8,182 nt of DNA from a virus (taxonomy: Duplodnaviria > Heunggongvirae > Uroviricota > Caudoviricetes), in the IMG/VR virus record IMGVR_UViG_2695420732_000017. The stretch is one strand, 5' to 3'. Below are positions 484 to 7,012 of this stretch, piece by piece (position 1 is the first letter of the stretch; the number at the start of each line of letters is the position of its first letter). The notes below the pieces were generated by a model, which did no database searches, had not been told where the DNA came from, and was given only the letters and a program-made list of their open reading frames with translations. The translations under genes and the position numbers were made by a program.

Positions 484-1581
484 ATGACAATTTCATATAT
501 TCCTATTCTGAAAGCGAAACGTTCTGAGTTATCAGCTTTATCGCAGCTATCCATTGAAAAGAAATCAAAAATTTTGCCATTACTCGAAATTGAACCAGTG
601 CCAATTGACCCTGATTCAGGTATTGCCTTAAAGAGTTATAACGAGACTCTTATAGAGTTCGGAAAGAAAGTCTCAAAATCTTGCTCAGATATGCAAGGTG
701 TTTATATTGATGGATTATTAATTGAAGAGCATTTTATTTCTCCTGAAGATCATTACCCTATAATAAATGCGGTTAATCAAGTTAGAGATATGGGGATAAG
801 AGTTATTCCTGTCAGTTCACCAACTCGCCCATCTAACTATAAAAGAGCGATTGATGAATTAATGCAGAATGAAATATGCTTGAGATTAACCACGTTAGAT
901 CTGGTTAACCCACAATTAATAACGCATTACATTAATCATCTGGGAATTCCTTTATCAAATATTGATATAATTATTGACTTAAGAGATGAGTTAACCGAGG
1001 ATAAAATTAATTCCGGCGAACTATATACTTTGGCAATGGGATTGATAAACAATCTGGCGCACCTCAATGAATACAGAAAAGTGATTCTTTCTGGGGGTTC
1101 ATTTCCTACAGATCTCAGTGATATTTCTGTTGGTCTATATTCTCAACCTCGAATCGAGTGGATTTTATGGCAGAGTTTAATGAATAGAAAAGAACTTGCC
1201 AGAAATGTGATTTATAGTGATTATGGAGTACAGCACCCCGACTTTAATAGGCTTTCGACGCGATTCCCTAGCGTATCTGCCAGCGTCAGATACTCTGGAG
1301 ATAATGACTTTTGGGTATTTCGAGGAAGAGTAGCTAATCGCTTTGGTTATGAACAATATGGTAAACATAGTGAGGATATTCTTGCTCATCGAGAATATTC
1401 AGGGCCTACATTCTGTGCGGGAGATAGAGACATAGAATATTATGCAAACGAGTATCAAGCCTACAAAGCCAATCCCTCTGGTAACTATAAATTTGGTAGC
1501 CCAGAGGTATGGCGTAGGATTGGGCAAAACCATCACATAACTAAGGTTGTTGAGCAACTCGCCACTCTTTACGGGCTTTAA
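484..1581 (+). CDS. Beta-protein-like (Pfam Beta_protein / NCBI sce7725-family-like) protein of unknown function, 365 aa
   Basis: ATG at 484 is the first start after an in-frame TAA (472-474), with an AAGG Shine-Dalgarno 7 nt upstream. Clean 365-codon ORF, strongly AT-rich (roughly one-third G+C by eye). The N-terminus TISYIPILKAKRSELSAL matches, from memory, the hallmark start of the Beta-protein / sce7725 family. The family call is unverified. Confidence 0.75.
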   Translation: MTISYIPILKAKRSELSALSQLSIEKKSKILPLLEIEPVPIDPDSGIALKSYNETLIEFGKKVSKSCSDMQGVYIDGLLIEEHFISPEDHYPIINAVNQVRDMGIRVIPVSSPTRPSNYKRAIDELMQNEICLRLTTLDLVNPQLITHYINHLGIPLSNIDIIIDLRDELTEDKINSGELYTLAMGLINNLAHLNEYRKVILSGGSFPTDLSDISVGLYSQPRIEWILWQSLMNRKELARNVIYSDYGVQHPDFNRLSTRFPSVSASVRYSGDNDFWVFRGRVANRFGYEQYGKHSEDILAHREYSGPTFCAGDRDIEYYANEYQAYKANPSGNYKFGSPEVWRRIGQNHHITKVVEQLATLYGL

Positions 1582-2119
1582 GTTTAACTCGAACAGCTTC
1601 ACGAAGCTCGCCAACATCCATACTATTGGCGAGTTTTGACCATAAGACGCGTTTAGGTTTATTTTTCAAATTCTGTAGCTCCCCTACATCACTTAATAGG
1701 GAAAGCAATTCATCTTTCCAAAGAAGCATTGTTAAGGAAAGTTTGTCCACTTGTGGATTCAACTTGCTAGTTCGAATTGTTTTTAAATGGATACCTTGCC
1801 GTGCACCTTGCGTAACTTGCTTTATCCCCCACCATGATGGAACTATGCTTAAAGCATCATAAAGATGGCAATCAGAGACAACCAAAGTTACTTTATCCAT
1901 CACTGATGAGTAATGTTGCACCTGCGCTGGTAATCTGAGCAAGTTATCACTCTTGCTCTTCAACTCATAACCATGTATAAGCCCATTGATCACTGCTATA
2001 TCAGCTCTGCTAGCCCCTAGATTCATCGTAAACTCATCAATGATTAGGGTGTCAGGATCTTTATGATGATCTCTCAGAATCTTGGCATGCACAGCCTTTC
2101 TTACATCAATGTCTCTCAT
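1541..2119 (-). CDS. PD-(D/E)xK nuclease-fold protein (sce7726-family-like), 192 aa
   Basis: Open frame on the minus strand with ATG at 2119-2117 and an in-frame stop six codons upstream; stop codon at 1543-1541. N-terminal motifs IIDEF (E29), RADIAV (D40) and GYELKS (E52-x-K54) have the spacing of a restriction-endonuclease-like PD-(D/E)xK core. AT-rich like its neighbour. Shine-Dalgarno is weak. Confidence 0.75.
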   Translation of the reverse strand: MRDIDVRKAVHAKILRDHHKDPDTLIIDEFTMNLGASRADIAVINGLIHGYELKSKSDNLLRLPAQVQHYSSVMDKVTLVVSDCHLYDALSIVPSWWGIKQVTQGARQGIHLKTIRTSKLNPQVDKLSLTMLLWKDELLSLLSDVGELQNLKNKPKRVLWSKLANSMDVGELREAVRVKLKARKEWRVAQQP

Positions 2120-2158
2120 ACCATAGTTGCGCTTTCATCGACTCTCTCAAGCCATGAT

Positions 2159-2167
2159 TCTATATCA
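2159..2167 (-). promoter_or_regulatory. Possible extended -10 element (TGaTATAGA) for an independent promoter of the nuclease-like gene
   Basis: On the minus strand the sequence TGATATAGAAT lies about 40 nt upstream of the ATG at 2119, inside a 305-bp ORF-free gap. No convincing -35 was found, so this is tentative. Confidence 0.3.
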
Positions 2168-2424
2168 TGGTTCGCATGAATGCCATTTGATATGACCAGT
2201 GGTTAAACATTGCACAGAAAAGTGGATGTGTATTTTAACAAAAGCAATGACGGCTAACCATGTTGGTATGTCGATAAAATGTTTCAACGTAAGCATTATC
2301 TGTTCCGCCCTTTCAGACGGCCTCCTGATGTTCTGAGGGTGCAGAATCCCTCCGGTTAAGGATTTAATAAAAATCGTTTCTGATTTAAATCTTCAGTATT
2401 TAGTTGTTAGTCGGTTTATAGCCT

Positions 2425-3442: not shown

Positions 3443-4405
3443 TTACCCCCTGAAGCCCGGCGGAATTTCAGTGTCCGGTTCAGAAATGTGATTCACGCAA
3501 CGCTGCGCAGGCGAACGCCCCAGGCGGATAACCAGTTCATCCCATTTTTCCCGGAGTTTTGCCGGACTCATGATGTTTTTTACCCAGAACGAATCCCGCT
3601 GGAGACGCCCAAACATTTCACAAATTTGTCTGTGAGTTCTGCCATCCAGCATCCGCATTGTGCGAACGTCATTGGCCCATGCTGTCCAGTTGGGTTCTTT
3701 CGGTCTAGTGATCTCGCCATCATAGCTGGCCGCCTGCTCGTAAAGACTCACGATTCGTCCCCAGATCCACTGTGCGCACACCAAATCTTCCTGACTTCCC
3801 CACTGGCGTTTTTTCGCACTGAACACAACCGCGTCAGGGTGTCGGGTTAAAAAATCCTGTTCAGCCGTCTGCGGGTCCGGTTGCGAAGCGTCCGGACAAG
3901 AAGATCTTTTATCTGACGGATCAGGTTTTAATACTGACGGATCGGGGTCAATCATCGCCCCCCTAATCGGCAGTTTTTTATCAACAGTTGATCCATCAAA
4001 ATTTGACGGGTCAACCGTTGAGGGGGCAATATTTGACGGGTCAACTGTTAACTGGTCATTTTTTGCCGGGCTAATTTTTCTTTTCGGTTTATATGACTCA
4101 CGCGCCGCCGCAGCTGCTGCTTCGAGTTTTTCCACATTAAGCCGATAGATATTGCTTACATTACGCCCACCGACCTTACGCTCTTCCTTCGTCAGCCAGC
4201 CCTCTTTCGCCAGTTCTGCAATAGCCGATTTCACTGTGGATTCACTTCTTGCACCGATCTGACGCCGGATAGTTTCAATGGCAGGCCATGACACACCCTC
4301 GTCATTGCTGTAGTCTGCAAGACGGGCCATAACCGCCACCCTGGATAAGATCATGCCGGTGAAGGCGCACCCTTCCCAGACAAGACCATGAAGCTTGCTG
4401 CTCAT
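3443..4405 (-). CDS. Phage replication initiator, lambda O-like architecture (N-terminal winged-helix/HTH, repeat-containing linker, C-terminal domain)
   Basis: 320-codon ORF from the ATG at 4405 (a GTG at 4420 is an alternative start), with a GGGGG Shine-Dalgarno just upstream. The N-terminal segment WPAIETIRRQIGARSESTVKSAIAELAKEGWL is HTH-like. The central region encodes repeated TVDPSN / DPDPS units from DNA direct repeats, as seen in lambda O where the origin lies inside the gene. Confidence 0.8.
   Translation of the reverse strand: MSSKLHGLVWEGCAFTGMILSRVAVMARLADYSNDEGVSWPAIETIRRQIGARSESTVKSAIAELAKEGWLTKEERKVGGRNVSNIYRLNVEKLEAAAAAARESYKPKRKISPAKNDQLTVDPSNIAPSTVDPSNFDGSTVDKKLPIRGAMIDPDPSVLKPDPSDKRSSCPDASQPDPQTAEQDFLTRHPDAVVFSAKKRQWGSQEDLVCAQWIWGRIVSLYEQAASYDGEITRPKEPNWTAWANDVRTMRMLDGRTHRQICEMFGRLQRDSFWVKNIMSPAKLREKWDELVIRLGRSPAQRCVNHISEPDTEIPPGFRG
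3912..4095. repeat. Putative replication origin: four direct iterons (core TGACGG(A/G)TC) plus an adjacent AT-rich stretch, inside the initiator gene
   Basis: TGACGGATC occurs at about 3914 and 3935; the longer TTTGACGGGTCAAC(C/T)GTT occurs at about 4001 and 4031. An AT-rich tract (about 4055-4095: cattttttgccgggctaatttttcttttcggtttatatga) lies beside them. Confidence 0.55.
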
Positions 4406-4427
4406 AAAACCCCCGAACACCGTGCTT

Positions 4428-4853
4428 TTAGTGCATCACCACAGCATTCCCTGCCGGGCCGCCGCGATTCATCTGGTCATACAAAACAACCGCTGACGCA
4501 ACAAAATCGTCGACATCCTTCACCAGCCGATCCCGCCGTTCGACAATCTCCCGGTAATACTCAGAGCTGTGACTGCGCATACGGGCCACCAGCAGAGGCG
4601 GCATTGCCTTTTCGATCGCCGGTAACAGAGCCTGAATTTTTTCAACAGCATCAGGGGTGTCTTTATCCAGCCAACGGAAAATTTTCTGTGTATTACGGGC
4701 CAGGGCTTCCGGATGGCTGTCGTCGTACAGTTCAGGGAACGTCATCCCCAGTTCGAAATAAGTCCGGGCTATTTCAGCTGCAGGAACTTTCTCACCATCA
4801 GGGTATGCCCAGGCATTCATCGCCATGCGGATGTGCTCATGTTTGATTTTCAT
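4428..4853 (-). CDS. ydaT: YdaT-like prophage protein (recalled as DUF1019 / Toxin_YdaT family), 141 aa
   Basis: The N-terminus MKIKHEHI and C-terminus ...VVMH match my recollection of Rac prophage YdaT. The gene overlaps the upstream ydaS-like gene by 17 nt. Confidence 0.7.
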   Translation of the reverse strand: MKIKHEHIRMAMNAWAYPDGEKVPAAEIARTYFELGMTFPELYDDSHPEALARNTQKIFRWLDKDTPDAVEKIQALLPAIEKAMPPLLVARMRSHSSEYYREIVERRDRLVKDVDDFVASAVVLYDQMNRGGPAGNAVVMH

Positions 4854-5160
4854 GAATCATTTGCCTCTTGATGCTTCGGGTATGATCGTTTTCGTCATTT
4901 GGTTGCTTCATCGACATATTCTGCGAATAACATGACGAGCGTCGTAAGTATGTCCAATCAACATCAGGACGAAGTTCTTCACACAGGACACCACCTTTTG
5001 TTGCTCGTTCAATCGCAGGACATCTCTCAGCAGGCAACTGACGTACACCTTTGATCCATTGATTTACGCTTGGAGGAGATACACCTAAAAGCCTAGCCAT
5101 TGCTGATTGCCCACCGACAACAGCACAAGCTCGTTTGAATGAATAGTTATCTTTTTTCAT
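4837..5160 (-). CDS. ydaS: YdaS-like Cro/CI-type HTH protein (Cro analogue), 107 aa
   Basis: ATG at 5160 is preceded by GGAG with an 8-nt spacer; the ORF track's longer version begins at a GTG at 5181 with no ribosome-binding site. The HTH segment QSAMARLLGVSPPSVNQWIKG is typical of YdaS-like proteins. The gene is divergent from the repressor gene. Confidence 0.75.
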   Translation of the reverse strand: MKKDNYSFKRACAVVGGQSAMARLLGVSPPSVNQWIKGVRQLPAERCPAIERATKGGVLCEELRPDVDWTYLRRSSCYSQNMSMKQPNDENDHTRSIKRQMIHENQT

Positions 5161-5187
5161 CGAATGAACTCCAAAAAACACGCAACA

Positions 5188-5231
5188 ATATTAGGCTTAG
5201 CCTAATACAATTGTCAATAGGCTATGCCTAA
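5188..5231 (-). promoter_or_regulatory. Leftward sigma70-type promoter with operator half-sites (TTAGGC...GCCTAA) for the ydaS-ydaT-replication operon
   Basis: Read on the minus strand: TTAGGCATAGCCTA, then TTGACA (-35, plus-strand 5212-5217), an 18-nt spacer containing TTAGGCTAAGCC, then TAATAT (-10, plus-strand 5188-5193). A third operator-like site (attgcctaa) sits at about 5248-5256, near the repressor gene start. Confidence 0.55.
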
Positions 5232-5284
5232 CACATCGAGAGTAGGGATTGCCTAACGCGATGCGCATAGGAGACTATTAAGCA

Positions 5285-5761
5285 ATGCTTAGTGGTAAAG
5301 ACTTAGGCCGAGCGATAGAGCAGGCCATTAACAAAAAAATTGCATCAGGAGCCGTCAAATCAAAGGCGGAAATCGCACGTCATTTCAAAGTCCAACCACC
5401 ATCAATCCATGACTGGATTAAGAAAGGTTCGATAAGTAAAGACAAACTTCCAGAACTATGGCGTTTCTTTTCTGATGTGGTTGGTCCAGAGCATTGGGGG
5501 CTTAACGAATACCCCATACCAACCCCATCCACTTCAGATACAAAAAGTGAACTTTTAGACATAAACAGCCTTTATCAAGCCGCCTCTGATGAAAAAAGAG
5601 CAATTGTGGCTTTCCTCTTATCTGGAAATGCTACGGAGCCTAGTTGGGTTGATCATGACGTTCGCGCCTACATTGCCGCAATGGAAATGAAGGTAGCTAA
5701 CTATCTGAAAAATCAAGAATCAAAACGGAAAAGCCAGAACATCACCAAGACAGGAACTTAA
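5285..5761 (+). CDS. Prophage repressor, HTH DNA-binding protein (RacR/DicA-type functional analogue), 158 aa
   Basis: ATG at 5285 with AGGAG 11 nt upstream. HTH segment KSKAEIARHFKVQPPSIHDWIKKGSIS. Divergent from the Cro-like gene and flanked by operator-bearing promoters. The length (158 aa) fits my recollection of RacR, but the assignment is not verified. Confidence 0.8.
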   Translation: MLSGKDLGRAIEQAINKKIASGAVKSKAEIARHFKVQPPSIHDWIKKGSISKDKLPELWRFFSDVVGPEHWGLNEYPIPTPSTSDTKSELLDINSLYQAASDEKRAIVAFLLSGNATEPSWVDHDVRAYIAAMEMKVANYLKNQESKRKSQNITKTGT

Positions 5762-6953: not shown

Positions 6954-7012
6954 TTTTCTGGTGACGTTTGGCGGTATCAGTTTTACTCCGTGGCTGCTCT
7001 GCCGCCCTTTTT
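6954..7012 (+). ncRNA. dicF: DicF small regulatory RNA (Hfq-dependent antisense sRNA of the dicB operon) with its rho-independent terminator
   Basis: The sequence tttctggtgacgtttggcggtatcagttttactccgtggctgctctgccgcccttttt matches my recollection of E. coli DicF almost base for base. The 3' end has a GC stem (GGCGG...CCGCC) followed by TTTTT. It sits between the ydfC-like gene and dicB, as in Qin. Confidence 0.75.

Follow-up and report, generated by a model that had tools for sequence, protein, structure and literature searches.

A putative PD-(D/E)xK nuclease of the P4 cII family and its convergent, overlapping Beta-family partner in a lambdoid prophage

The nuclease-beta gene pair

The 8,182-nucleotide stretch of virus record IMGVR_UViG_2695420732_000017 (hereafter the window) carries two convergent genes that overlap at their 3' ends, one an open reading frame (ORF) for a 192-residue protein on the minus strand and the other a gene for a 365-residue Beta-family protein on the plus strand. 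Judging from its sequence and from a structural model, the 192-residue protein is most likely a metal-dependent PD-(D/E)xK nuclease of the sce7726/P4 cII family, while its partner is predicted to fold as a triosephosphate isomerase (TIM) barrel. The pair and its parts are as follows.

1541-2119, minus strand: 192-residue ORF, PD-(D/E)xK nuclease-like protein of the sce7726/Phage_P4_cII family (from family-model matches)
1772-2119, minus strand: nuclease core domain, residues 1-116 (helices from within 3-20, strands, and a hairpin reaching to 116)
1958-2035, minus strand: motifs I-III, E29 (2033-2035), D40 (2000-2002), E52 (1964-1966) and K54 (1958-1960) (from translation and invariance)
1910-1924, minus strand: motif IV, Q66-x3-Y70, in the helix after strand 3 (from conservation and model helix 63-73)
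1562-1759, minus strand: C-terminal four-helix domain, residues 121-186, with W134, E137, R183 and W186 conserved
484-1581, plus strand: 365-residue Beta-family protein (PF14350), predicted TIM barrel (from Pfam and PADLOC)
1541-1581, both strands: 41-nt antisense overlap of the 3' ends, which spans L180-P192 and the stop codon in the nuclease gene, and T353-L365 and the stop codon in the beta gene

The initial annotation had proposed a PD-(D/E)xK catalytic core at the N-terminus of the 192-residue protein, and the motifs on which it relied are where it placed them: IIDEF at residues 26-30, RADIAV at 38-43 and GYELKS at 50-55, with D40 and K54 correctly numbered. The translation of 1958-2035 (minus strand) is EFTMNLGASRADIAVINGLIHGYELK, running from E29 to K54.

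Family membership and conservation of the active site

The 192-residue product already belongs to a described family. NCBIfam model NF033832 (sce7726 family) matched it with an E-value of 1.7e-56 and 191.1 bits, the cutoff of the model being 70, and the match paired residues 1-184 with positions 1-183 of the 184-position profile; the PADLOC model "cll", which represents cII of the gop-beta-cII system, matched with an E-value of 2.4e-28; and all of the listed homologues carry the precomputed Pfam assignment PF26915, Phage_P4_cII. No Pfam match was obtained for the protein at E <= 1, or for any of 28 family members at E <= 10, with a local copy of Pfam that lacks PF26915. The identical protein is entered in RefSeq as WP_001204666.1 and is present in phage Rac-SA53.

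In an alignment of 28 sequences (46-81% identity), E29, D40, E52 and K54 were invariant. A larger alignment of 152 sequences was built from the query and 151 cluster representatives at 50% identity, retrieved by an exhaustive profile search in which the family comprised 5404 cluster representatives at E <= 1e-3. In this alignment E29, E52 and K54 were each present in 152/152 sequences and D40 in 151/152 (Glu in the remaining one), Q66 was also found in 152/152, and Y70 was found in 145/152, with Phe in six others. D58 and R62 of the nuclease are invariant as well. When the homologues from P4 (cII), a Gordonia phage and a Myxococcus phage were added, E29, E52 and K54 were still invariant, and D40 was conserved in at least 90% of the sequences. 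The residues singled out by the initial annotation were thus retained among homologues in both alignments, and because of this conservation a chance occurrence of the loose E...D...ExK pattern was ruled out. QxxxY is a signature of the RecB-like group, to which NucS, Cas4 and lambda exonuclease belong. The active site of the 192-residue protein is most likely formed by E29, D40, E52-x-K54 and Q66-x3-Y70, as conservation and the predicted structure suggest, within a core of approximately 116 residues.

Predicted fold and relationship to known nucleases

An AlphaFold2 model of the nuclease, built on the alignment, had a mean predicted local distance difference test score (pLDDT) of 92.3 and a predicted template modelling score (pTM) of 0.87. 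From the N-terminus, its elements are helices 3-14 and 16-20 and strands 25-32 (carrying E29), 37-44 (D40) and 48-54 (E52 and K54), followed by helix 63-73, strand 76-82, helix 83-92, a hairpin at 98-116 and four helices within 126-181. This order corresponds to the alpha-beta-beta-beta-alpha-beta core of the PD-(D/E)xK superfamily, with the Asp on strand 2 and the (D/E)xK motif on strand 3, so that the predicted fold agrees with the superfamily first suggested for this protein. The domain boundaries had to be redrawn: instead of a minimal core of about 30 residues with about 130 uncharacterised residues behind it, the core runs from residue 1 to approximately 116 and includes Q66xxxY70. The suspicion of a separate C-terminal domain was borne out by the four helices, but this domain spans only residues 121-186. 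It probably binds DNA or the Beta-family partner.

Profile searches of the PDB with 28- and 59-sequence profiles gave no meaningful match, and the link to known nucleases is therefore one of fold. The proteins closest to it in structure include many restriction endonucleases. Motifs I-III (E29, D40 and E52xK54) together with Q66xxxY70 on the following helix reproduce the arrangement of the RecB-like nucleases, whereas the family profile models of that group (PDDEXK_1, Cas4 and NucS) did not match. The 192-residue protein would work in the manner of RecB/NucS/MmcB-type nucleases but is not assigned to those families. Several differences set it apart from them. NucS/EndoMS, Cas4, AddAB and lambda exonuclease are not matched by the protein in hidden Markov model comparisons and have different domain partners; NucS has an N-terminal DNA-binding domain that the 192-residue protein lacks; and since the nuclease family has no invariant Cys, an iron-sulfur cluster of the Cas4/AddB type is absent from it. 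SPO1766 (PDB 3dnx), which we take to be the structural representative of the MmcB-like/DUF1052 family, has 146 residues, lacks the C-terminal four-helix domain and has no known Beta partner, and its kinship with the nuclease family was undetectable at the sequence level in the Pfam and PDB profile searches. The 3dnx structure has been called a PD-(D/E)xK structure by Laganeckas 2011 (PMC3045609).

Conserved pairing and frame-locked overlap

The initial annotation considered the protein a stand-alone nuclease; however, a convergent, overlapping Beta-family gene is conserved beside it. Among 80 genome loci recovered by a search with the nuclease profile, the nuclease gene was directly followed by a convergent Beta-family ORF in 77, and in 75 of these 77 the two genes overlapped at their 3' ends. 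Two of the three exceptions were cut by contig ends, and beta was replaced in the third. The loci come from at least nine phyla, namely Proteobacteria, Firmicutes, Actinobacteria, Acidobacteria, Chloroflexi, bacteria of the candidate phyla radiation, Melainabacteria, Armatimonadota and Gemmatimonadota. In the reciprocal search, which started from beta, the convergent nuclease layout was seen in 53/59 viral contigs, which include many near-identical prophages of Escherichia coli and hence are not independent. The window gene accordingly shows the pairing with an sce7725/Beta-family protein that marks the sce7726 family. In addition, the pairwise identities of nuclease and beta co-varied (Pearson r 0.82).

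The overlap itself is constrained. Across phyla its length ranges from 11 to 167 nt (loci L003, L005-L084 and L094-L152), with 89 nt in the pair of Gordonia phage Powerball, and it equals 2 modulo 3 in all 75 overlapping genome loci and all 53 viral contigs. In 67 of 78 pairs, a distance of exactly 30 nt separates the first base of the conserved Trp codon of the nuclease (W186) from that of the conserved His codon of beta (H351). Opposite the invariant TGG, beta has Ala, Ser or Thr (codons xCC) at residue 360 in nearly every case, and Asn, Ser, Thr or Lys (codons Axx) at residue 361. This restriction of two beta codons is the footprint of antisense dual coding, and the frame-locked overlap provides a rare and clean bacterial example of very old dual coding.

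In the window, no terminator-like site was found between the genes and the overlap region had no stable RNA fold (z-scores -0.9 and -0.2), so the two transcripts are expected to be complementary across it. On the same results, the idea that the overlap holds a conserved RNA structure or a terminator was rejected for the window.

The Beta-family partner

The partner matched Pfam Beta_protein PF14350 (3.8e-52) and PADLOC PD-Lambda-2_C (1.8e-41), and the PADLOC beta model at 2.1e-4 only. In the literature, the Beta-family protein is described only as "P4 antitoxin". Its TIM-barrel fold was predicted with high confidence. Residues kept across phyla include E15, D76, R134, D161, D165, R198, R223, R240, D246, Y247, Y270, Q291, D314, H350 and H351, among them the His pair H350/H351, and no Cys is invariant. 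TIM-barrel active sites sit at the C-terminal ends of the strands, and this is where D76, D165 and D246 are located. With these conserved Asp residues and the His pair, the modelled Beta is probably an enzyme and looks unlike a simple antitoxin.

Distribution of the gene pair

In the window, the pair is a bare two-gene accessory cassette within the early region of an E. coli prophage of the Rac/Qin-like lambdoid kind. A search of 5426 complete E. coli genomes found the pair region in only 93. The cassette of the window follows directly downstream of the replication genes, with a DUF977 protein among the genes to its right; in strain 2013C-4991, the pair is flanked by hokD on one side and by the replication genes on the other. 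Another E. coli variant of the pair is inserted between lysis and terminase genes, other variants are found in primase-carrying islands, and the copy of the Gordonia phage adjoins HicAB and an integrase. Accessory genes of the defence type are typically placed in this way in prophages.

Relationship to gop-beta-cII and PD-lambda-2

The gop-beta-cII system of P4 protects against lambda and P1, and gop and beta have been read as a toxin-antitoxin pair (Rousset et al., PMC9122126); in the account of Ghisotti 1990 cited there, the toxicity of Gop in P4 is neutralised by Beta. Cell death via gop-beta-cII is set off by orf184, an accessory gene of a phage (Silas et al., bioRxiv 10.1101/2023.04.06.535777). 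P4 cII (NP_042034, 264 residues) matched the same PADLOC "cll" model as the 192-residue protein, and hhalign related the two with a probability of 98.7 and an E-value of 2.6e-16. They share approximately 27-28% identity, and the catalytic residues of P4 cII align as E in IINEM, D in RADLAI, ExK in FEIKS and Q in GQLKIF; P4 cII differs in having Phe in place of Y70 and an extra C-terminal extension of approximately 78 residues. Both P4 and the window have a convergent Beta-family neighbour within an accessory locus of a mobile element, although the P4 genes are 27 nt apart whereas those of the window overlap. The window therefore holds the cII and beta components of the system in convergent order, but gop, which lies upstream of beta in P4, is not found in that position. 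Close relatives likewise had no co-directional ORF upstream of beta. A hidden gop-like gene was considered and rejected, as the nuclease gene is preceded only by ORFs of at most 45 residues and beta by none.

The second system, PD-lambda-2, consists of a HigB-like A, an Xre-peptidase B and a Beta-like C, and has been classed as toxin-antitoxin-like (Vassallo et al. 2022). The A and B genes expected upstream of C are absent from the window. As published, the system has three genes and no nuclease is mentioned, whereas natural A-B-C loci carry a convergent cII-type gene. In L022 (5001-8122), all three PD-lambda-2 models matched, and a convergent, overlapping cII-type nuclease gene was also present. 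Further PD-lambda-2-type loci with the nuclease gene are L040, L044, L046, L049, L059, L060, L075, L077, L078, L081, L083 and L084.

What lies upstream of beta varies widely among the 80 genome loci. About 20 have a gene of approximately 400 codons, the size expected of the Xre-peptidase, just upstream of beta; 13 of these genes form one family cluster, and at least nine of the loci carry a HigB-like gene as well. Others have a helix-turn-helix (HTH)-S24 peptidase or an FRG-domain gene there, and about half, including every close enterobacterial relative, have nothing upstream of beta. HigB and ImmA/IrrE pairs were also found on plasmids, where they accompany unrelated cargo. Most simply, beta and the cII-type nuclease gene would constitute the conserved core, and the upstream genes would be interchangeable add-ons. 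No published statement of such a core was found in the literature searched.

Proposed function of the gene pair

Taken together, these observations lead us to favour, with fair though incomplete confidence, a role of the 192-residue protein as an active metal-dependent nuclease forming the DNA-cutting arm of a two-gene anti-phage module of the prophage, working with or under the Beta TIM-barrel enzyme. The nuclease would be one half of a two-gene unit, and the convergently encoded Beta barrel the other. The barrel would sense infection or license the cut, and the nuclease would then cut DNA, providing a prophage-encoded defence against other phages. The overlapping convergent transcripts would keep the genes inseparable and might couple their expression.

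Several lines of evidence weigh against this proposal. The published view has gop as the toxin and beta as its antidote and gives cII no role, while the window is without gop. The nuclease gene can be intact where beta is not: in Xenorhabdus koppenhoeferi (L013, 5001-6810), a kinase fragment and a PP2C-like phosphatase gene stand in place of beta, and in Lysinibacillus (L063, 4950-5925), beta is reduced to its C-terminal third. Similarly, Myxococcus phage Mx4 (L004, 3992-5211) has a lone cII-type homologue and no beta. The PD-lambda-2 clone that protects against lambda-vir reaches only 396 bp past the stop codon of gene C; if a convergent cII-type gene is present at the ECOR42 source locus, this clone would therefore lack its first ~45 codons, and defence would have been obtained without the nuclease. 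No DNA match to the ECOR42 PD-lambda-2 locus was found in complete E. coli genomes, and plasmid searches returned only HigB/ImmA pairs with other cargo. Lastly, in the literature searched on sce7726, PF14350, gop-beta-cII and Rst_gop_beta_cll, no mechanistic work was found, nor was there biochemical or genetic work on any cII/sce7726 member.

The Mx4 homologue is part of an early operon transcribed in one direction, directly upstream of a gene for a RusA-family resolvase and downstream of one for an HTH protein.

A broader and more tentative suggestion is that Beta and the nuclease form an ancient unit that is the true core of both gop-beta-cII and PD-lambda-2, and that the overlap, whose frame is locked from phages of Actinobacteria to E. 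coli, serves as a device for functional coupling (e.g., antisense control of the nuclease effector) and not just for compaction; we regard this as possible, with the balance leaning against it.

A toxin-antitoxin system is an alternative that we consider unlikely. The nuclease would then be a toxin restrained by Beta or by antisense pairing of the mRNAs, serving in prophage addiction and stabilisation, or in abortive infection upon loss of beta. The tight, reciprocal linkage of the two genes is compatible with such a system, as are the complementarity of the mRNAs across 41 nt or more and the lack of an intervening terminator, the neutralisation of Gop by Beta in P4 in the cited account and the classification of PD-lambda-2 by Vassallo et al. 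However, the toxin reported in P4 is Gop and not cII, and a 365-residue TIM barrel with conserved Asp residues and a His pair is enzyme-like. Moreover, the genes of a type II system are co-transcribed and the toxin never occurs without its antitoxin, whereas the genes of this pair are convergent and intact nuclease genes occur without intact beta (L013 and L063) or alone (Mx4). As far as gene content can tell, the same three cases weaken the initial suggestion that the nuclease would be toxic unless regulated.

A system resembling restriction-modification appears improbable. Here the Beta barrel would modify or repair nucleic acid (cf. TGT and DpdA), and the nuclease would cut according to the presence or absence of the mark. 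The many conserved Arg, Asp and His residues of beta would suit a nucleic-acid or phosphate substrate, the nuclease has many restriction endonucleases as structural neighbours, and restriction-modification genes are often arranged convergently. Against these points, the lack of an invariant Cys in Beta excludes a zinc site of the TGT type, no DNA-recognition or methyltransferase domain was found, and gop-beta-cII brings about a trigger-activated cell death, unlike classical restriction.

Equally poor are the prospects of a repair or recombination nuclease for the replication of the prophage itself, or of a non-catalytic regulator, despite the label "DNA repair protein MmcB-like" given to a homologue by one source, the early operon of Mx4 with its RusA resolvase, the annotation "exonuclease" in the Gordonia phage, the historical name "cII" and the database label "regulatory protein", which hint at a regulator, and the position of the window gene just downstream of replication genes: the near-obligate TIM-barrel partner is foreign to known recombination nucleases, the varying locations (replication genes, lysis/terminase genes and the P4 hotspot) and the occurrence of the pair in so few E. 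coli genomes follow the pattern of an accessory gene and not that of a core phage function, and the strict conservation of the catalytic residues speaks against a purely regulatory role.

Both gop-beta-cII and PD-lambda-2 are catalogued defence systems without a known mechanism, and in the literature searched cII is treated as an unexplained passenger. If cII-type proteins are RecB-like PD-(D/E)xK nucleases, as their sequences and predicted structure indicate, tied to a Beta barrel and present in PD-lambda-2-type loci as well, this would offer a starting point, with D40 and K54 of the nuclease and D165 and D246 of beta as concrete targets for mutation. There appears to be no earlier description of cII-type proteins as nucleases, of their occurrence in PD-lambda-2-type loci or of the frame-locked overlap, and together these points make two orphan defence systems testable. 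For the window alone, the significance is modest, as it contributes another copy of an annotated prophage accessory pair from a known family and superfamily.

Genomic surroundings of the pair in the window

The remaining features of the window that bear on the pair or on its prophage are listed below.

2120-2424, minus strand: 305 bp preceding the nuclease gene, the presumed site of a promoter of its own
3443-4420, minus strand: 325-residue HTH_36 replication-initiator-like protein
4428-4853, minus strand: YdaT-like gene, in the prophage immunity region (4428-5761)
4837-5181, minus strand: YdaS/Cro-like gene, in the immunity region
5285-5761, plus strand: divergent repressor-like gene without a Pfam match, in the immunity region
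6956-7007, plus strand: DicF small RNA (Rfam RF00039, 75 bits, E 1.3e-15)

A sigma-70 scan of 2120-2424 gave one weak match (2186-2157), which was not above that of shuffled sequence, and only short ORFs of at most 45 residues were found in this region. Scans for direct and inverted repeats around the pair revealed nothing notable. On the other side of the pair, the 3' part of a transposase gene of the IS3 family (IS1203-like) occupies 16-363, and the sequence to the left of approximately 404 has been replaced. The boundary of the replacement precedes the start codon of beta by approximately 79 bp, and most pair-bearing genomes differ from the window there, leading instead to hokD. The 120 bp between the fragment and the beta start codon contain no ORF. 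The insertion may have changed the promoter of beta.

The divergent gene at 5285-5761 is presumably RacR-like, and the presence of DicF is expected for a prophage of the Qin/Rac type. In the middle of the HTH_36 protein, a short peptide is repeated (TVDPSN, STVDPSN and STVD).
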